A stretch of DNA of 64,000 nt from Candidatus Poseidoniaceae archaeon (GTDB taxonomy: Archaea; Thermoplasmatota; Poseidoniia; Poseidoniales; Poseidoniaceae), in assembly GCA_016777125.1 (NCBI GenBank), contig JADHSC010000007.1:4323-68322 (forward strand), written 5' to 3'. How positions within the stretch are numbered: position 1 is the stretch's first letter; the number at the start of each line of letters is the position of its first letter. A program made the position numbers and the translations under genes. A model generated the notes under the pieces. The model ran no database searches, was not told the origin of the DNA, and was given only the letters and a program-made list of their open reading frames with translations. Shown piece by piece: positions 16,623-64,000 of the stretch.

Positions 16623-16697
16623 TGGTGCGAGCGCCGGGACTCGAACCCGGGTTCAAGCGTTGGCAACGCTCGGTGATAACCACTACACTACGCTCGC
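16623..16697 (-). tRNA. tRNA-Gly(GCC), CCA encoded, no intron
   Basis: Reverse complement GCGAGCG TAGTGTAGTGGTTATCACC GAGCG TTGCCAA CGCTT GAA CCCGG GTTCGAGT CCCGG CGCTCGC A CCA folds as a cloverleaf with anticodon GCC; TTTATA box upstream. Confidence 0.97.
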
Positions 16698-16770
16698 AGG
16701 CAGTAACCAACCCACTAAGCGGGGGTATAAACGATTGTCGGCGGAATCCGATGCTCAAACAAATCGAAGA

Positions 16771-19700
16771 TTATTGGAACCCGAATCTGTCCTGACCTTT
16801 CTCTGGAGGATTGCGTTGCCGAATCATCACAAACGCAGCCGCACCAAGTGCCACTATAGCCACAATTATTGCAATAAATGTAATCGATAACCCATCTCCA
16901 TCACCGAGCAGGTTATCATCATCAGCCTCTGAAACAATCACATCAAAGGATGTTGGCGGGGTAGCCTCACCGTATGAATCAGAAGCCTGTATCTTGATTT
17001 CGTGGAAACTGAGTGGAGTGGATGATCTTACAGAAGCTGCTGCTGTGTAAATTCCATCACCTGCAACACGGTCAAGACCTTGGCCATTATCGTACAACGT
17101 GACCCATTTTTGAGTTTGACTGATGGGTTTTAGAATCCCTAAATCTGCTCGAACAAGAAGGATTCCATCGGCATCTTCTACATTGATTTCGATAGCCTGC
17201 TCTGTGTTTAGATCCTCTCTGATGAGGGCTTCAGTTGTGGCGAGTGAAATCGTAGGCGGTGTATTTTCAACCGTAACGGCCAAGTCTAAATCCGTTGAAC
17301 TCGGTTGGAAATGATGCTCTGAGGCCTGCGTTTTACTCACGAGTATTGTCGCCCCAAGTTCATCCGTAAGTCGAACACTGATGGAACGCACGCCTGGAGC
17401 CATCCCGTAAGGGAGAATCAATTCACACATCCAAAGATCCATCTTCTGACAAGGGATTTCCTCTCCACCGTAAACACGTAAATCAACACCGACAGATGCC
17501 ACACCGTGGTAATCAAGTGCCTCGATGGTCATCAATGTCGCTCCACCGCGAATGACTTCGTTTGGTGAAATTGTCGCACTGAGAATTCGAGGTGCTTGAT
17601 TTTCCACAGTAATGGTGGTCGAAAGTGAATCGCTTTCGAACCATTCATCCGTAGCTTGGGCAGTGATGTTTATTTCACCCACCTGCAAACCATTGACCGA
17701 AACCATCGTTGTCCATTTGTTATCTCCAATTGTTTGGTCCCCGTTAAGACCTCGATCATTCATGTTGACGATACCAAGCCCGAGTGATGAAAGGTCGACT
17801 GTTACGCTGGCAACGTTCCAATCATCATCATCGATTGTAGCAACAAGATGTGCTGGCGAGCCACCTTCTCCAAAGACCAATCCTTCTGAGAGCGAAAGAT
17901 CGGTCACAATTGGAGCTGAATTATCATCAGCGGAAACGATACTTGGTGAAAGGATGACATCCACTGCTTGAGATTCATTGAGGAAAGCGATTTCGTCATC
18001 CTCACCAAAGGCGATTTCAAAGGAACGCGAAGTGCTTGCAAGAAGTCCTGAAAGCGGACCCTGATGGACGATTGAACCAGAAGCAGTACCCGATACACCA
18101 TCGCTGTAAACACCAGTCCATTGAACGACACTGAGGTTCTTTGCATCTCTCGGCTCAACCGCTTCATTGCCTGCAGTGATTGTTAGAACGATTCCATCTT
18201 GTTCGAGCAAGCGAACCACATCGCCCGTATGAATAGGAATCGGAGCTAGGCCCGCTTCTCGTCCAACAGAAATATTGCCTAAGGCATTCTCTGCTTCTGG
18301 AGGAGTTGCATCTGTTTCGATTGGACTTCGCTCAGGACGTTCATCTCCACTTGATGGGTCGGGGCCAGTCTCAGTCCAAACAAGACGAACAGTTCGGTTT
18401 TCCCAATCCGAATGAGTTGCTTGATAGATGTAGGAATCATTGTAATAAGCACCTGCTCCAGAACCACCAAAGAAGTTACTTCCACCAATGCCTGTGACGT
18501 TAAACCAAACTTCATTGTGAATGACGTTAACATCGTGAAGAACCATTGTTTGGTTCATCTGTGTGCCTGTTTGTTCAATCGATTGAACCACTCCAAATGT
18601 TCCTTGAACATCTCCTGAAAGTGTTCCATCAACATGCAAGTCGTCGATGTAGGTGATACCATCAACGACCTTTGTATTGAAATTGTAAACCGAACCATTT
18701 ACGATCATCGTTGCATTTTCATCCTCATCCTCAAATCCAAAGGTTCCATCTCCTTGAAGATGCTCAAGATGTTCAACTCGCACGCCGTTTTCCCATCGCT
18801 CGAGTGTCTCGAACTGATTGAGGTCAAGATCCAATCGAGTTCCTTCATCTACGAGAACAAAGTTTGCTGTTGCTTCGATTTGAGTGTGCTGTAACACACG
18901 TACACCATCGATATCGTTTGTTTCAAGCAATAAGAGACTGATATCTCCATCGACATCCAAACTCCCATCTTCACCTTCGCCTTCAACCATCAAAGACCCA
19001 AAGGCTTCGAGTCGAAGTCGTTCAGACACAATGTTATCGAGATTTGAGCGATTGAGGAGAGCATCAACCACCGTTGCATTAATCGTGGAAATTACGCCAT
19101 CATCGTTGGTTTGGAGGAGAATACCACCGCTGCCGCGTGCTTCGATAACTTGAGAGGTTAACGCCCCTGATACCACTGTTTCATTTTTCCAAAAGGATTC
19201 GAAATTCAAATCTAATACCGTTGTCGAATTATCGGTTATTTCGGTTGTTTGAAGGGTCCCGTTTCCAAGTTCATAGGACTGAAGTACCTCATTGATTCGT
19301 TGTTGCCAACCATTGCCTTCAAACAATAAAACGAATGTTTGGTTTCCTTCTTCGGTTTCATAATTTTGTTCCAAGGACCAAGATGAAGTTGTTGTCACTT
19401 CGTGATCTGCCATCGGTTGATTCCATGAACCGACAACAAAGGTTCGTTGTTCGTTCACAGAAGTCGAAAGAGCAACACCATTGTGACCATTGATGGTCAC
19501 TGAAACAGTGATCGAATCGTTCCACGCTACAACTGAATCGAGGACAATTCGAGCGGTTAATGTCGAGGTTTGATCGAGAAATGTCGTTTGAACTGATGGT
19601 GCTAAATCGTTGCCTGCGCGTAGATGAGATACGCTTACATCGTAATCATGCGACGAAGAATCTCCAAATGTCAAAACATATGCATGCTCATTGGAAAGAG

Positions 19701-19821
19701 AAGATGTGCTTGTCCAATCAGTGGTTATTGATACACTGGGTGTATCTTCCGCTGATGCGAGATATGTAAGCGGAGTAAGGAGGAGAAGAAGAGTGATGGC
19801 CGATGCACGAATCAATCCCAT
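16771..19821 (-). CDS. Large secreted, C-terminally anchored cell-surface protein (beta-repeat region, Ig-like and choice-of-anchor-X-like domains)
   Basis: Signal peptide (ITLLLLLTPLTYLASA); two motifs of the type LYDNG...D..AGDGIYTA / MNDRG..GD...GDNKWT; C-terminal TM plus basic tail. Confidence 0.8.
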   Translation of the reverse strand: MGLIRASAITLLLLLTPLTYLASAEDTPSVSITTDWTSTSSLSNEHAYVLTFGDSSSHDYDVSVSHLRAGNDLAPSVQTTFLDQTSTLTARIVLDSVVAWNDSITVSVTINGHNGVALSTSVNEQRTFVVGSWNQPMADHEVTTTSSWSLEQNYETEEGNQTFVLLFEGNGWQQRINEVLQSYELGNGTLQTTEITDNSTTVLDLNFESFWKNETVVSGALTSQVIEARGSGGILLQTNDDGVISTINATVVDALLNRSNLDNIVSERLRLEAFGSLMVEGEGEDGSLDVDGDISLLLLETNDIDGVRVLQHTQIEATANFVLVDEGTRLDLDLNQFETLERWENGVRVEHLEHLQGDGTFGFEDEDENATMIVNGSVYNFNTKVVDGITYIDDLHVDGTLSGDVQGTFGVVQSIEQTGTQMNQTMVLHDVNVIHNEVWFNVTGIGGSNFFGGSGAGAYYNDSYIYQATHSDWENRTVRLVWTETGPDPSSGDERPERSPIETDATPPEAENALGNISVGREAGLAPIPIHTGDVVRLLEQDGIVLTITAGNEAVEPRDAKNLSVVQWTGVYSDGVSGTASGSIVHQGPLSGLLASTSRSFEIAFGEDDEIAFLNESQAVDVILSPSIVSADDNSAPIVTDLSLSEGLVFGEGGSPAHLVATIDDDDWNVASVTVDLSSLGLGIVNMNDRGLNGDQTIGDNKWTTMVSVNGLQVGEINITAQATDEWFESDSLSTTITVENQAPRILSATISPNEVIRGGATLMTIEALDYHGVASVGVDLRVYGGEEIPCQKMDLWMCELILPYGMAPGVRSISVRLTDELGATILVSKTQASEHHFQPSSTDLDLAVTVENTPPTISLATTEALIREDLNTEQAIEINVEDADGILLVRADLGILKPISQTQKWVTLYDNGQGLDRVAGDGIYTAAASVRSSTPLSFHEIKIQASDSYGEATPPTSFDVIVSEADDDNLLGDGDGLSITFIAIIVAIVALGAAAFVMIRQRNPPEKGQDRFGFQ

Positions 19822-19876: not shown

Positions 19877-20839
19877 TCAAAGGTCAAGAAGGTATGCAAA
19901 GAGGAGCGGTACGACGATGGTAGCATCGCTTTCTACAACGAACGTAGGCGTGTTAACACCAATTTTACCCCACGTGATTTTTTCACTCGGAGGAGCGCCA
20001 GAATAGCCTCCATAAGATGGAGTTGATTCACTGATTTGTCCAAACCAAGACCAAAGCGGTACATCTTTTTCCATATCTTGATTGAGAAGTGGAACTACGC
20101 ATATTGGGAAATCACCTGCAATGCCTCCACCGATTTGGAGGAAGGCCAAGGAAGTCTCTTGATGCTCATACCATGGTGCTAATTCCATCATGTAATGGAT
20201 ACCAGAAAGCACACAATCTGAAGAGATTGTTCCTTCAAGGCAACGTGCTGCGAAAATATTCCCTGTGGTTGAATCCTCCCAACCAGGTACAAAGAGTGGC
20301 AAATCTGCTTCTGCAGCTGCTAAAAGCCAAGAGGAACTCTTGTCACCTTCGATTGATTCATCGAGATCAGAAGAGCGTAACATGTCGTAAAAGTACGCAT
20401 GAGGCAAGTGACGTTCTTGATGTGCTGTAGCACTTGACCATCGTTTCATCAAATGCTTTTCAATAGCACGAATGGCAACATCTTCAGGGATACAGACATC
20501 TGTAACTCGATTCATTTTCTTATCCAGTAGGGCTTTTTCATCTTCAACTGAAAGGGTTCGCCAGTCCTCAATTTGTTCGTAATAAGGTAAGGCAACCATT
20601 CTGAAAACATCCTCTTCCAAGTTTGCACCTGTGCAAGATATTCCTGCAACATATCCTTTCCGAATCAATGGAGCCAAAACCTGACCAATTCCTGCGGTAC
20701 TCATTGCTCCTGCGAGTGTTATGAACAGTTTTCCACCATCGTCAAGATGTTGTTTCAGAGAAGCAGCCATGCGCTTCAACTGACCTGCATTAAAATGCTG
20801 GAAATAGTGCTCGATGAAGGCAGACATTGACATTCTCAA
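19877..20839 (-). CDS. Deoxyhypusine-synthase-like protein of the bacterial type (probable homospermidine synthase)
   Basis: TLAGAMSTA, TGANLEED, NRVTD, DST.G, GGGIAGDFPICVVP, YSGAPPSEKITWGK (catalytic Lys), SDATIV. Confidence 0.85.
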   Translation of the reverse strand: MRMSMSAFIEHYFQHFNAGQLKRMAASLKQHLDDGGKLFITLAGAMSTAGIGQVLAPLIRKGYVAGISCTGANLEEDVFRMVALPYYEQIEDWRTLSVEDEKALLDKKMNRVTDVCIPEDVAIRAIEKHLMKRWSSATAHQERHLPHAYFYDMLRSSDLDESIEGDKSSSWLLAAAEADLPLFVPGWEDSTTGNIFAARCLEGTISSDCVLSGIHYMMELAPWYEHQETSLAFLQIGGGIAGDFPICVVPLLNQDMEKDVPLWSWFGQISESTPSYGGYSGAPPSEKITWGKIGVNTPTFVVESDATIVVPLLFAYLLDL

Positions 20840-21222
20840 TCCTCCAGATGAAGGAAACGGTTGACCTTCTGTTCTTGCATGAGTACAAGGCCTGGTATTT
20901 CCAATTCAAGTACTGCTTTCAAATCTACAACTATTCCACTAGGATCGGTGCCTCCACACGTAAACGCATCTATGGCAAGCCAACCAAGTTCGCTGTAACA
21001 ATGAGCTGTGAGGTGGCTTTCATCTAAGAGAACGACAGCAGCAAAACCGGGTGGTGAGGTGATGCCATCGAACAATTCAACGTGCGCATGGACTTCTGTT
21101 GCAGTGCTTCGTTCAACGACCTCTTTCAAAATGTTAAGAACCCAATTTCCATCTTGATGCTCTGCTGGAAAGAATCTGTTGTAGTCAAGGAAGATATGCT
21201 GGCCGTGAGCGTTTGTTGACAT
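20836..21222 (-). CDS. Pyruvoyl-dependent AdoMetDC-fold (class 1b) decarboxylase proenzyme; substrate uncertain
   Basis: GQHIFLD, PPGFAAVVLLDESHLTAHCYSE (E-S cleavage site), AIDAFTCG. Start MSTNAH at 21222. Confidence 0.85.
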   Translation of the reverse strand: MSTNAHGQHIFLDYNRFFPAEHQDGNWVLNILKEVVERSTATEVHAHVELFDGITSPPGFAAVVLLDESHLTAHCYSELGWLAIDAFTCGGTDPSGIVVDLKAVLELEIPGLVLMQEQKVNRFLHLED

Positions 21223-21227
21223 AGTGT

Positions 21228-22235
21228 TCACTCCGCTCTTGATTTTCTGAAAATCGTTGGTGTTGTGGTTGGCCGGTGTGCCCCTTCTGTTTCCCGCAAG
21301 AGGTCCCATCGCCCTTCCTTGCGAGCCTTTGCATGGCTTGCGACAATCTTTGTTGCGAGCATTGCTGCTGTAAATTGGGTCAGAGGCGTATCTATTTGTG
21401 GGACGATTTCATTGACATCAGCACTGACAACAACTGCCTTTGAGGCACTGAAAAGAGTCTGAATCGTTTGTTGGACTTGCCAAAAGGTTAGGCCTCCAGG
21501 TACAGGAGTCCCTGTAGCAGGGACGAGTGCCCCGTCCAATCCATCGATGTCAATGGTCAGATGAACAGGTCCTTCGATTGAATCTAAGAGGTCAAGCCAA
21601 GCCTGCCAATGTGTTGCACCTTGACATGGAGATTGGGTATCTTGAGCAAAGAATGTCGTGATACGTTCATCTGAGAGCATGCGTTCATGCTCTTCTTTGC
21701 TGAAAGCACGGATTCCAACTTGCAATAATCGCCCTACTCCTGCATCGAGTGCTCGTGCTGCTGCACAGGCATGTGAATAGGGTTCGTCGTCAAGTTCAGA
21801 TCGCAAATCACCGTGAGCATCGATTTGGACCACAGTAAGATTGGACAGATCATTGTGAACCAGTGGATGATTCCGAACAGCTTCCATGAGAGGAGGAAGA
21901 ATCCCGTGTTCTCCGCCAAGTGTGAGTGGGAAACAATCACCGTTGAACCATGGATTGAGATAACCAACCATGGAATCAAGTTGATGGAGTAACGTTGGTT
22001 CTTCTCCATCCCAAGCCTTTGCAGTATGAATGGCGAGACCTGCAGGAAGGTCCTCCTTCAGTTCAGCATCATATAATTCGACTTGTCCAGATGCTTCTAT
22101 GCAAGCATTTGGGCCTCTTGAGGTACCTGTTCCGTAAGATGTTGTTAATTCATACGGAAGAGAAAGGACAACGATATCGACACCCTTTTCTATAGGCTCG
22201 AGCCCCAAAAAAGTGTGGTCGCCGGACGGTTGCAT
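21228..22235 (-). CDS. speB: Agmatinase (ureohydrolase family)
   Basis: PYELTTSYGTGTSRGP, GGEHG, IDAHGD, IDIDGLD, PATGTPVPGG, ADVNE. Confidence 0.85.
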   Translation of the reverse strand: MQPSGDHTFLGLEPIEKGVDIVVLSLPYELTTSYGTGTSRGPNACIEASGQVELYDAELKEDLPAGLAIHTAKAWDGEEPTLLHQLDSMVGYLNPWFNGDCFPLTLGGEHGILPPLMEAVRNHPLVHNDLSNLTVVQIDAHGDLRSELDDEPYSHACAAARALDAGVGRLLQVGIRAFSKEEHERMLSDERITTFFAQDTQSPCQGATHWQAWLDLLDSIEGPVHLTIDIDGLDGALVPATGTPVPGGLTFWQVQQTIQTLFSASKAVVVSADVNEIVPQIDTPLTQFTAAMLATKIVASHAKARKEGRWDLLRETEGAHRPTTTPTIFRKSRAE

Positions 22236-22401
22236 TCTGCCAAGCGCGCTGTTTTCTGTTCTTAAGAGTTCTTCAATATAATGCTCAAAAAACCTTCAGG
22301 ACACCCTATTTCATGAAAAAGTGGCGATGTGTTAATATAGTCCGGGGAACAATATACAATAGTGTTCTCGGACAGTAATGTCCGGGGAGGGGGAAAAAAC
22401 G

Positions 22402-27550: not shown

Positions 27551-28252
27551 ATGACTGCAGACGATTGGGAAGAGAAAATGCTTGACCAACTTGAGAAGCT
27601 CTTGTCCAACATGGGCATGAATATGAGCCGTGAACAACTCAGAGGTCTACTGAAGCAGTTTCGATCCCAATTCGAAGCAATGGGAATTGACGAAGAACGT
27701 ATTGCGAAGGGTGATGTGAACTTTAATTTCGATTTGAGCAGCCTCAAGGACATGTTCCAACCAGGCATGGATTTTGGTGAATTGTTCAAGAACATGGGCG
27801 TTGATGTCCGTGTCGATACAGCACCAGTTGAGATTCAGACTCCAGAAAACGACGATGAAGAGAACCTCACACTCCCTGCAGACGATATCTATCTCGAAGG
27901 TTGGAACATGAGCGTCACTGTTGATTTTGCTAAGAAAGGTGAAATTGAACAAGATCAAGTCGAATTGAACCTTATCGATGGAGGCACGCTTGTCGAAGTC
28001 CATAGGTCTACACAACTTGCTCCACTTGCTCGGATTGAACTCCCTCATGCTTGCGAAGATGTTGTTGATTTCACGCTGAATAACGGTATCCTCGATATCA
28101 CACTGCGATTGATTCCTCCTGAGGAGGCCTTCGCAGCACTGCCGCCAGGTGAAGACGGCGACGATTCTATTCCCCAACAATCCGACATTACCATCGATGT
28201 TGCAGACGATGACGATGATGATGACGATGATGGAGGAATCCCCATTCTGTGA
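27551..28252 (+). CDS. Hsp20/alpha-crystallin-domain small heat-shock protein with a long N-terminal extension
   Basis: C-terminal beta sandwich ending RIELP..C....[12 protein letters not shown], terminal IXI motif (IPIL), first gene before dnaK. Confidence 0.7.
28205..28231 (+). repeat. GAY trinucleotide run encoding nine Asp in the Hsp20-like C-terminus
   Basis: gac gat gac gat gat gat gac gat gat. Confidence 0.9.
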
Positions 28253-28266
28253 AAGGAGATGAACAA

Positions 28267-30153
28267 ATGAGTAAAGTAATTGGAATTGATTTAGGAACAA
28301 CAAACAGCTGTGTAGCAACCATCGAAAACGGTGAACCAATCGTTATTGCAAACGCAGAGGGCGCAAGAACCACTCCTTCTGTCGTTGCATTTAGCAAAGA
28401 TGGAGAACGACTTATCGGAATTACCGCCAAGCGACAAGCGGTAACGAACCCTGAACGAACCATGATCTCTGTCAAGAGACATATGGGGACTGACTGGAAT
28501 ACGAAAATCGATGACACCGATTACACGCCTCAAGAAATCTCTGCGTTTATTCTTCAAAAGTTGAAGGCTGATGCTGAAGCATATCTCGGTGTTGAAGTCA
28601 AGCAAGCGGTCATCACATGTCCTGCATACTTCACTGACGCTCAACGAAAGGCAACCAAGGATGCTGGCCGTATTGCAGGGATGGATGTTCTTCGAATCAT
28701 CAACGAACCTACCGCAGCAGCTCTCGCCTATGGTGCTGACAAAGGAGATGACCAAACCATCCTCGTCTACGACTTGGGTGGAGGTACTTTCGACGTATCG
28801 GTTCTTGAAATCTACAACGTTGATGGTCAACCTCAGATTGAAGTAAAGGCCACGGCTGGAAACAATAAACTCGGTGGCGATGATTTCGATGACCGTGTTA
28901 TTGAATGGCTTGTGAGCGAATTCAAGCGAGAAACTGGCATTGATCTCTCCAAGGACAATCAAGCAATGAGCCGCCTCAAGGAAGCTGCTGAGAAAGCGAA
29001 AATTGAACTCTCTGGAACACAATCGTCTCAGATCAATCTTCCATTCATTACAATGAAGGACGGAAATCCAGAACACCTCGATATCACACTCTCTCGTGCA
29101 CGATTTGAGGATTTGATTGCAAAGCATATCGAAGACACAATGGGTCCAACCCGTCAAGCAATGAAAGATGCTGGTATGAAGAAAGGCGATGTAGACAAGG
29201 TCATTCTTGTCGGCGGTTCAACCCGTGTCCCTGCTGTACAAACCGCCATCGAAAACGAAACTGGAAAGGCACCTTACAAGGGAATTAATCCTGATGAAGC
29301 AGTTGCTATGGGCGCTGCACTTCAAGCAGGAATCATCGCTGGTGATGATGGCGTATCCGACATTCTTCTTCTCGATGTAACACCTCTTACACTCGGGATC
29401 GAGACGCTCGGTGGAGTCACAACAACAATGATCGAGCGAAACACAACAATCCCTGCTCGAAGAAGTGAAATCTTTTCAACCGCAAGCGATAATCAGCCTG
29501 CTGTAGAGATTCACGTCCTTCAGGGTGAACGAGAATTCGCAAAGGATAACACAACCCTTGGTCAATTCCACCTCTCTGACATACCACCTGCTCCTCGTGG
29601 AGTCCCTCAAGTTGAGGTTACCTTCGACATTGACGCAAACGGTATCGTTAACGTGAGTGCAAAGGATATGGGTACTGGAAAAGAACACTCCATCAAGATT
29701 GAATCTCAAACATCCTTGAGCGAAGAAGATATTCAAAGCAAGATTGCAGAAGCTGAAAACTTCGCAGAAGAAGACAAGCGCAGAAAAGCAAAGGTCGAAT
29801 TGCGAAATATGGCAGATCAAATCGTCTACCAAACTCGCCGAACCCTCGATGAAAATGAGGACAAACTCGATGCTGCTGATCTTGAACCGGTTCGTGAGAA
29901 ACTCACTGAACTTGAAGCACTTGTCCAAGATGGAGAAGGAAAGCCAATCGATTACGATGCAATGGATGAAGCTACAATTCAAGCAAAGGTCAAGGAAGTT
30001 GAGGAATCAATGCATGCAATCTCATCCAAACTCTATGAGGCTGCTGCTGCTGAAATGGCTGAATCAGAAAACGATGAAGGAGATGGAAACATCAACGTTG
30101 AAAGTGACGATGTTGTTGATGCTGACTTCGAAGTTGTCGATGAAGAAGACTGA
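28267..30153 (+). CDS. dnaK: Chaperone DnaK (Hsp70)
   Basis: [67 protein letters not shown]. Confidence 0.98.
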
Positions 30154-62592: not shown

Positions 62593-62673
62593 TACAATTT
62601 CCTTTCAAAAGAAACCACTTTTGGCACCCATGAAAACATAGCGTCATATACTCGCTTACCTGATGTTATTGGC

Positions 62674-62889
62674 ATGGACAGAACATTATCAGACATAAAG
62701 AGAGAGTTTTCAACCGCCAGTACTGCAGGTTATATTCTAGGCTTCCTAGGCCTATCGATCATCGCTGTAACACAGTTAACTGCACTCATGCCGTTGCTCT
62801 TTGCACCAACGGTTTGTGGGACATTAGGAGTTCTTCTCTACAAATCTCAAATCAACAACAAGCAAATCAACATCGTAACAAATGCCTAG
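62674..62889 (+). CDS. Small two-TM hypothetical protein
   Basis: 71 aa with two hydrophobic segments. Confidence 0.55.
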   Translation: MDRTLSDIKREFSTASTAGYILGFLGLSIIAVTQLTALMPLLFAPTVCGTLGVLLYKSQINNKQINIVTNA

Positions 62890-63096
62890 ATTTGACAAGT
62901 GATATCTTTCACAATCAGAGGGTAGCGTCTGACAAGACCCACTGCGAACCCTTTGATTTGTCATTACCTGAGCAATGGGTATTCGGATAGACCCTTTGGC
63001 AATGAGGTAAAACACTTACATTAACCTTTGAAAAATACATTTGATACTTATGAAAGTAGGAAGAAGACATAAAGGGGCAAACATAAACCAACAAAT

Positions 63097-64000
63097 ATGA
63101 AGGGACTAAAGGCAATATCTCTTGTATTCTTTTTGCTTATTCAGATCGTCTCACATGGAGTTCATGAACAAATTCATTCTCCGAATGATGAAATGGCTTT
63201 GGAACCATTGAATAAAATGTTCCAATCTGGGAATAATTCATCTTCAAATAATACCGGAGGAAACAACACATCCAATGACTCCCATTGCTTGACTTTAGCG
63301 AATTTCACCATAAGTCAATCACATTATGTAAACCTAGAATTGGTAAATATTTGTAATAAATCGTTAAACTATCCTGGAGTAAATGCATCATCTAATAATT
63401 CAAATGTCTATGGGTTTCTGAACTACACAAATTGGTTTTACATGATTCCAGCTAACTCAACTTACAACATGAGTTGGCAATTATCGTTCAATCAATCTCT
63501 TACAACCCCAACAAGTATCACAATTAATTTTGAAGCTGCGATTTTGAACTGTGGAACAAATGGTTCATGGCACGACTGTCCGACATCGAACTTATCGTAT
63601 ACTTTCACTTATACTCCTCCAGTAATCAGGCTGGTGATTTTATCAACCTCGTTTTACAATAACTCCAACGATATCATAACTCTAACGCATCGATCTGAAA
63701 ATTATTCAGGATATGTGAACTGGAGTTACACATCAACAAACGGCACAGTCTCTAACACATCGACATACTCAAGTTCTTCAGCGAGAACAACCTACCTTTA
63801 TCCACAAGTTTTCGGCTCGATCCAAATATGTGGTACAATAACGAATATCACATCTGCATGTACGACAATACAGCGCTCAATTCGGACTCTCCAAGGCTCA
63901 ATACTCTCTCCTATGACTAATCTCTCAACAAATCAAAGTTCCGTAACTCTCGAGTACTTTGGGAGCAATTACCTTAGTGGTTCTGTTACATTAAATCAAC
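63097..64000 (+). CDS. 5' part of a secreted Asn/Ser/Thr-rich surface glycoprotein, running off the window
   Basis: Not in the ORF track. Manual translation from the ATG at 63097 is open to the end: MKGLKAISLVFFLLIQIVSHG...GNNSSSNNTGGNNTSNDSHC...; signal peptide and many N-x-S/T sequons. Confidence 0.85.
   Translation, partial: MKGLKAISLVFFLLIQIVSHGVHEQIHSPNDEMALEPLNKMFQSGNNSSSNNTGGNNTSNDSHCLTLANFTISQSHYVNLELVNICNKSLNYPGVNASSNNSNVYGFLNYTNWFYMIPANSTYNMSWQLSFNQSLTTPTSITINFEAAILNCGTNGSWHDCPTSNLSYTFTYTPPVIRLVILSTSFYNNSNDIITLTHRSENYSGYVNWSYTSTNGTVSNTSTYSSSSARTTYLYPQVFGSIQICGTITNITSACTTIQRSIRTLQGSILSPMTNLSTNQSSVTLEYFGSNYLSGSVTLNQ

Follow-up and report, generated by a model that had tools for sequence, protein, structure and literature searches.

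Marine Group II (MGII) archaea are among the most abundant archaea of the surface ocean. We describe here a three-gene cluster, speB-speDA-speY, found in a 64-kb stretch of DNA (hereafter, the window) from a Poseidoniaceae (MGII) archaeon, and conclude that it is probably a polyamine operon through which arginine is converted to agmatine, agmatine to N1,N9-bis(guanidino)homospermidine (G44G), and G44G to homospermidine. The operon and its arginine decarboxylase are already known, in outline, since 2023, when Li, Liang, Phillips and Michael sought homologues of SpeD, the S-adenosylmethionine decarboxylase (AdoMetDC), in genomes without the spermidine synthase SpeE (Li et al. 2023, JBC 299:105005, PMC10407285). 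In that study, a speDA candidate was reported as "clustered with speB and speY" in the MGII/III euryarchaeote fosmid KM3_15_H06, and an "identical gene arrangement" was noted in a Candidatus Poseidoniales metagenome-assembled genome (MAG), isolate 70165. Neither of the SpeD homologues AIF02979 and DAC51064 restored spermidine synthesis in an E. coli ΔspeD strain, and the purified proteins decarboxylated L-arginine only, not ornithine or lysine, with kcat/Km values of 64 and 180 M-1 s-1 (PMC10407285). The MGII SpeDA proteins shared a clade with their counterparts in Gimesia, Solirubrobacter and two stramenopile algae, a clade that arose separately from the Sulfolobus arginine decarboxylase, and the pathway for the MGII cluster was drawn via putrescine (PMC10407285). 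The cluster in the window resembles those of KM3_15_H06 and isolate 70165 in belonging to the same order of archaea, in bringing the same three gene families together, in the small size of its SpeD-fold protein (~125-133 aa) and in having no speE within the 64 kb; it differs in coming from another species or strain.

The second closely related system is the bacterial SpeY, or diagmatine, pathway. The SpeY of Thermus thermophilus (CdmS) and six further bacterial SpeYs, including that of Winogradskyella algicola, couple two molecules of agmatine to give G44G, known alternatively as diagmatine or caldomycin (Kobayashi et al. 2024, PMC10981699; Li et al. 2026, PMC13625781), and homospermidine was formed only when a ureohydrolase was present (PMC10981699; PMC13625781). 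Purified SpeY-linked SpeB homologues from W. algicola and Caldilinea aerophila hydrolyse G44G with no detectable activity on agmatine, and the authors reasoned that, alongside a true agmatinase, SpeY would run short of substrate (PMC13625781). As in this bacterial pathway, the speY of the window stands beside genes for an arginine decarboxylase and a SpeB-family ureohydrolase. In Capsulimonas corticalis, another of the bacteria with this pathway, the decarboxylase is likewise derived from SpeD, although it emerged from SpeD separately from the MGII SpeDA. The host of the window is archaeal, however, whereas the G44G assays were performed with bacterial enzymes, and the ureohydrolase of the window is 28-30% identical to those of Winogradskyella.

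Two archaeal systems also bear comparison. In Saccharolobus solfataricus, a SpeD paralogue is an AdoMetDC-fold pyruvoyl enzyme that acts on arginine (Giles and Graham 2008, as described in PMC10407285), but, according to that description, it arose by an independent, recent duplication beside a true SpeD and feeds a pathway of the spermidine type, not a SpeY cluster. In Haloferax volcanii, an organism without spermidine, an agmatinase-family gene is paired with a gene of the deoxyhypusine synthase (DHS) family, termed here the DS family (Prunetti 2016, PMC5178350). That cluster, however, adjoins aIF5A, the arginine decarboxylase is of the PdaD type and encoded elsewhere, and HVO_2297 is a candidate canonical DHS (PMC5178350); in the window, by contrast, aIF5A is not among the neighbouring genes, and the DS-family protein belongs to the bacterial SpeY type.

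The operon and the region upstream of it have the following layout, in coordinates of the window:

22235-21228, minus strand: speB-like ureohydrolase gene, 335 aa (PF00491, E = 1.9e-49)

21222-20836, minus strand: speDA, encoding a SpeD-fold proenzyme (class 1b AdoMetDC), 128 aa (PF02675, E = 2.2e-14)

20839-19877, minus strand: speY, encoding a DHS-like, NAD-dependent protein, 320 aa from the TTG at 20839 or, more plausibly, 318 aa from the ATG at 20833 (PF01916, E = 1.2e-40)

22236-22377, no strand assigned: divergent intergenic region of 142 nt between speB and a DUF6015 gene, read from sequence; presumed promoter region

A preliminary description of this DNA had proposed that speB, an AdoMetDC-fold proenzyme and a DHS-like gene form one operon with no speE in the window. 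All three open reading frames (ORFs) were found on the minus strand as described, with their families confirmed by Pfam, and a Pfam scan of every window ORF of at least 90 aa detected no spermidine synthase (speE), second AdoMet_dc gene, second DS-family gene, PdaD or aIF5A. The 5-nt gap it gave between the speB stop codon and the speDA ATG is present in the sequence. Its 4-nt overlap of speDA and speY holds if translation of speY begins at the TTG at 20839, which overlaps the speDA stop codon by that distance, but not if it begins at the ATG at 20833. This ATG, two codons 3' of the TTG, lies 7 nt behind a GGAGG and appears the more plausible start, giving a 2-nt gap in place of the overlap. 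Whichever start holds, speB, speDA and speY are tightly coupled.

This arrangement is conserved. When species-representative genomes were scanned with the DHS-like protein as query, 43 Poseidoniales-type loci were recovered (54-96% identity), and the order speB, SpeD-fold gene, DHS-like gene was intact in 38 of them, the other five being cut by contig ends. Because the same order recurs in 38 of 43 loci, we regard the adjacency of speB, speDA and speY as that of a conserved operon, not as coincidence. Marine metatranscriptome contigs run unbroken over all of the gene junctions of the operon, which fits expression as a single unit. The source taxon is backed by the named homologues, which belong to Candidatus Poseidoniaceae and Poseidoniales MAGs, and the window encodes the archaeal markers thermosome, Alba and archaeal-type HMG-CoA synthase.

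The small SpeD-fold protein is predicted to be a pyruvoyl-dependent arginine decarboxylase: the biochemistry was done on Poseidoniales and MGII/III proteins of this cluster type, and is extended here to the copy in the window. Its taxon, gene cluster, length and family lead us to infer that the assayed AIF02979 and DAC51064 are its orthologues. With its Poseidoniales homologues, among them the Third Party Annotation (TPA) records DAC60406 and DAC28102, which derive from the same MAG study, it shares 52-90% identity. Nearly all of these homologues are 125-133 aa long, supporting the start that yields 128 aa; a 157-aa SpeD beginning at 21309 was ruled out given the length of the homologues. With the AdoMetDC model TIGR03330, the protein scored 63.4 bits, under the cut-off of 75.65. 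Its closest solved relatives are the Thermotoga maritima SpeD structures 1vr7 and 1tlu, and the self-processing serine S63 and the catalytic H68 and C83 of T. maritima have their counterparts in its Ser69 (in the E-S motif, DE-S-H), His74 and Cys89. The T. maritima motif HTWPE, however, reads HCYSE in SpeDA, such that T. maritima Pro71 is replaced by Ser77; judging by the text of the paper, this is the proline marked as invariant in true AdoMetDC in Fig. 8 of PMC10407285.

Several lines of evidence support the view that the DHS-like protein is a bacterial-type SpeY and not an aIF5A-type DHS. It carries the motifs GGGIAGDFPICVVP and EKITWGK, and its best NCBIfam match is the "homospermidine biosynthesis protein" model NF001980 (144 bits, below the cut-off of that model), while the DHS equivalog models score far under their cut-offs (NF002006, 110.9 versus 434 bits; TIGR00321, 109.7 versus 304 bits). 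The protein is 50-57% identical to the SpeYs of many bacteria, with 55% for each of two species of Winogradskyella; the value is 51% for the SpeYs of Obscuribacterales and of Woesearchaeota, but only 24-26% for canonical archaeal DHS. At 54%, the second MGII subclade is as close to it as Winogradskyella is. We constructed a maximum-likelihood tree from 56 SpeY sequences, mostly bacterial and including the genus Winogradskyella, and five canonical archaeal DHS sequences. The MGII proteins formed one clade inside the SpeY clade, with a support of 99 in the Shimodaira-Hasegawa-like approximate likelihood-ratio test (SH-aLRT), and a very long branch (SH-aLRT 100) split the SpeY clade from the five canonical enzymes.

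With canonical archaeal DHS (PDB 8put and 7cmc; NF002006 and TIGR00321), the window SpeY shares the DS fold of PF01916, the imine-forming lysine, the W-G-K motif and the Asp and Glu of the NAD site, but the canonical GGGxxKH is replaced by GGGIAGDF and a six-residue insertion. We mapped 23 positions onto human DHS numbering. The imine-forming lysine (K292, human K329), W290 (human W327) and E286 (human E323) are retained, whereas human K287 and H288, which fall within GGGIAGDFPICVVP, are changed to Gly and Asp and accompanied by the six-residue insertion, as in bacterial SpeY. Other changes are D243 to Asn, D313 to Tyr, Tyr at position 316, and [E/D]-S at human T308-A309. The MGII and Winogradskyella SpeYs have the same state at 22 of the 23 positions, the exception being human N292, which is Asn in MGII and Tyr in Winogradskyella. 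The characterised enzyme is that of W. algicola, a congener of the two species aligned, so that function is transferred at the level of the genus. On this signature, the window SpeY is a probable agmatine-coupling G44G synthase. The whole GGGIAGDF clade of SpeYs, bacterial and archaeal, has Gly-Asp in the place of human K287/H288 (residues 242-243 of the window protein), and members of it nevertheless make G44G. We also noted identical SpeY sequences in bins labelled Patescibacteria and Methanosarcinales, while two contigs that carry the archaeal operon in the same gene order, at 70-72% identity, are assigned to MAGs named Salipiger bermudensis and Rhodobiaceae; these are probably binning errors in public MAGs.

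For the third protein, the SpeB-like ureohydrolase, the assignment to G44G (diagmatine) as the last-acting enzyme, rather than to agmatine as a plain agmatinase, seems the most likely by comparison with the SpeY-linked bacterial enzymes. Aligned to the T. volcanium agmatinase 3pzl, this arginase-fold protein keeps GGEH, DAHGD and DIDGLD, the motifs of the binuclear Mn site. The protein scored 158.6 bits with the agmatinase model TIGR01230 (cut-off, 174.3) and 101.7 bits with NF002564 (cut-off, 302). In a tree of SpeB sequences, SpeY-linked SpeB homologues from Bacteroidota and Chlamydiota formed its sister group, with weak support (SH-aLRT 82), and E. coli SpeB lay far away.

Taken in order, the proposed pathway would proceed as follows. 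The SpeDA proenzyme would cleave itself between Glu68 and Ser69 to generate its pyruvoyl cofactor, and would then decarboxylate L-arginine to agmatine. SpeY, using NAD and the imine lysine K292, would couple two agmatines to form G44G, a step suggested by the 55% identity and the active-site signature that it shares with Winogradskyella-type SpeY. The SpeB-like Mn ureohydrolase would remove both guanidino groups as urea to leave sym-homospermidine, as suggested by the gene context and the specificity of the bacterial SpeY-linked SpeBs. Such a route would require neither pyridoxal phosphate nor S-adenosylmethionine, and putrescine is probably not an intermediate in it. Archaea need agmatine for the agmatidine of tRNA-Ile, and SpeDA would supply agmatine for this purpose also.

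Much of the preliminary description is upheld by these comparisons. Its assignment of the motifs of the DHS homologue to the bacterial type agrees with the tree, in which the protein falls in the SpeY clade, and with the residue mapping. Its placement of the AdoMetDC-fold enzyme in the arginine decarboxylase slot accords with the arginine-only activity of AIF02979 and DAC51064. This placement had already been published for the cluster in Poseidoniales, as had the SpeY assignment and homospermidine as the likely end product (PMC10407285). The comparison that it drew with the AdoMetDC homologue of Sulfolobus is sound as an analogy but not as shared origin, the MGII SpeDA clade having arisen from SpeD independently of the crenarchaeal one. 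In the tree of SpeB that it had called for, the window protein did group with SpeY-linked SpeBs, but with weak support. The order that it proposed, from arginine via agmatine and putrescine to homospermidine, is not supported and is probably wrong: every bacterial SpeY assayed makes G44G from agmatine, and the two purified SpeBs linked to such enzymes spare agmatine (PMC13625781). Because bacterial SpeYs make G44G, two SpeY-linked SpeBs spare agmatine, and the window SpeY bears the same signature, the order arginine, agmatine, G44G, homospermidine is the likely one. For the same reason, namely that the archaeal SpeY has the signature of the Winogradskyella SpeY, a type shown in W. algicola to couple agmatine, the putrescine scheme published for MGII should probably be redrawn via G44G.

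Several considerations weigh against this interpretation. The grouping of the window SpeB with SpeY-linked homologues is weak (SH-aLRT 82) and involves long branches, and the MGII SpeB has only 28-30% identity to the Winogradskyella SpeB homologues; moreover, all SpeB types assayed can hydrolyse G44G, so that sequence does not tell specificity (PMC13625781). The same study left open whether there are agmatine-dependent DHS-type enzymes in archaea, its own biochemistry being bacterial. The orthology of SpeDA to the assayed proteins draws on taxon, cluster, length and family. That speE and other polyamine genes are lacking applies to the 64-kb window only. Finally, the metatranscriptome contigs could include carried-over DNA.

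We weighed three other explanations of the operon. The first, the route of the preliminary description, is that SpeDA provides agmatine, that the SpeB-like protein is a true agmatinase yielding putrescine, and that SpeY condenses putrescine (two molecules, or one plus another donor) to homospermidine. Until 2024, speA-speB-speY clusters were read in this way as a matter of textbook knowledge, and the scheme drawn in PMC10407285 follows it; in addition, the SpeB-like protein scores best with the agmatinase model TIGR01230, and the closest solved structure to it is the T. volcanium agmatinase. The TIGR01230 score, however, is under the equivalog cut-off, all seven bacterial SpeYs assayed accumulate G44G with no homospermidine unless a ureohydrolase is present, and a true agmatinase would, on the authors' argument, compete with SpeY to the point of starving it (PMC13625781). 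As the MGII SpeY has the full active-site signature of the G44G-making group, we consider synthesis through putrescine unlikely. A far weaker case can be made for a true S-adenosylmethionine decarboxylase, in which the small enzyme would feed an unlinked aminopropyltransferase and the DHS-like protein would use the resulting spermidine. The Pfam and NCBIfam family is named AdoMet decarboxylase, the homologue records are annotated likewise, and TIGR03330 does return 63.4 bits, but this score falls short of 75.65, serine stands in place of the proline that true AdoMetDCs always have, and the assayed Poseidoniales proteins of the cluster fail in E. coli ΔspeD and decarboxylate arginine (PMC10407285). 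Since, further, the window contains no speE, and the genomes in the 2023 study were chosen for lacking it (PMC10407285), this explanation is scarcely credible.

The remaining explanation is that the operon serves translation and not the pool of free polyamine: as proposed for Haloferax, the DHS-like protein would move an agmatine-derived group to the lysine of aIF5A, and the agmatinase-like enzyme would trim it to deoxyhypusine. In that organism, an essential gene for an agmatinase-like protein lies together with those for aIF5A and DHS, and a route dependent on agmatine has been proposed (PMC5178350). Were speY the only gene of the DS family in Poseidoniales, its product would have to act on aIF5A, and we looked for another such gene. 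A six-frame phmmer search of the window with two solved archaeal DHS sequences matched only the gene at 19877-20839. Contig walks within the same species, reaching ~25 kb to one side of the operon and ~52 kb to the other, found no second DS gene, and thus no separate canonical DHS, and five long same-species contigs extending 10 kb rightward beyond the window contained no DS gene in that interval; in a second MGII lineage (PATD01000038.1), there was none over 43 kb on one side and the 16.5 kb to the contig end on the other. When a large protein collection was searched with a profile of five canonical DHS sequences, the matches listed all came from Thermococci, Methanococci and Sulfolobales, with no Poseidoniales among them, and a pattern scan of genome contigs with a two-sequence archaeal DHS alignment, which made poor patterns, reached one DPANN locus and otherwise loci of Thermococcus alone. 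In the literature, we found nothing on hypusine or DHS in Marine Group II beyond the 2023 paper (PMC10407285). Set against this, the SpeY of the window is 50-57% identical to the SpeYs of bacteria, which have no aIF5A, and 24-26% identical to aIF5A-type archaeal DHS; it is without the K287/H288 pair of the canonical enzyme and lies deep within the SpeY clade, and the Pfam scan of the window revealed no aIF5A gene nearby. Haloferax itself, moreover, has two DS-family genes, the second of which has been proposed to act in homospermidine synthesis (PMC5178350). On this sequence evidence, an aIF5A module is, in our estimation, very unlikely, and we retain the synthesis of homospermidine through G44G as the probable function of the operon.

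The sequence upstream of the operon offers a candidate for its promoter. The 142-nt region between speB and the DUF6015 gene contains a TATA-like TTATATT on the minus strand (22281-22275), 40-46 nt upstream of the speB ATG, and is presumed to be a promoter region. An Rfam search of the window identified no riboswitch or leader in the operon, its sole match being one tRNA-Gly, and scans of the window for sigma-70 promoters and terminators gave results at or below chance, these models not being applicable to archaea. One metatranscriptome contig of 5555 nt begins at 22276 and, by its length, would end near 16722. Downstream of speY, after 55 nt, lies a minus-strand ORF (16771-19821) encoding an acidic, surface-type protein of 1016 aa with an N-terminal signal-like segment, a C-terminal membrane anchor and no Pfam match. 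It is followed by a tRNA-Gly(GCC) gene on the minus strand (16623-16697), just before which the 5555-nt contig would stop. The operon may thus be transcribed as four genes: speB, speDA, speY and the 1016-aa ORF.

The orientation of the operon varies between lineages. Here it is directed away from the DUF6015, M14 peptidase and M17 peptidase genes, whereas in the second MGII lineage (PATD01000038.1) it is co-directional with the M14 and M17 genes and has DUF6015 on its other side. As the flanks are otherwise syntenic, we attribute the difference to a local inversion of the operon block.

Other features of the surroundings were noted in passing. Leftward, every assembly that includes the left-hand genes ends at the same point, ~5 kb beyond the start of the window and after an aldehyde dehydrogenase gene, and the contigs of other Poseidoniaceae species likewise end 22-24 kb downstream of speY, which suggests a repeat or hypervariable island there. 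At the opposite end (62600-64000), the G+C content falls to 0.39 after sdhB; an open-ended ORF of 301 aa (63097-63999) has no Pfam match, and five same-species contigs carry different small ORFs there, so that the segment looks like a strain-variable insertion site. A minus-strand ORF at 28291-29157 matches PF10712, "NAD-specific glutamate dehydrogenase" (E = 1e-51), and lies antisense inside an Hsp70/DnaK gene (28249-30153, plus strand; PF00012, E = 5e-233); the antisense ORF is very likely spurious.

A broader role for the operon can be entertained tentatively, although we think it rather doubtful: that it is the only source in the cell of the aminobutyl donor for deoxyhypusination of aIF5A, either because homospermidine feeds a separate canonical DHS or because SpeY acts on aIF5A via an agmatine-derived intermediate that the SpeB-like enzyme trims. 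The operon may be the sole aminobutyl source because Poseidoniales appear to be without spermidine synthase. Were this so, a horizontally acquired "bacterial" polyamine module would be tied to the modification of an essential archaeal translation factor, and the question of Li et al. (2026) about agmatine-dependent DHS-type enzymes in archaea would be answered.

The window adds one more member to a known type of cluster. To what was known, the present analysis contributes the conservation of the gene order over about 40 Poseidoniales species and the match between the signatures of the archaeal and Winogradskyella SpeYs. For the biology of MGII, the operon indicates that the polyamine of these archaea is probably homospermidine, and not spermidine.

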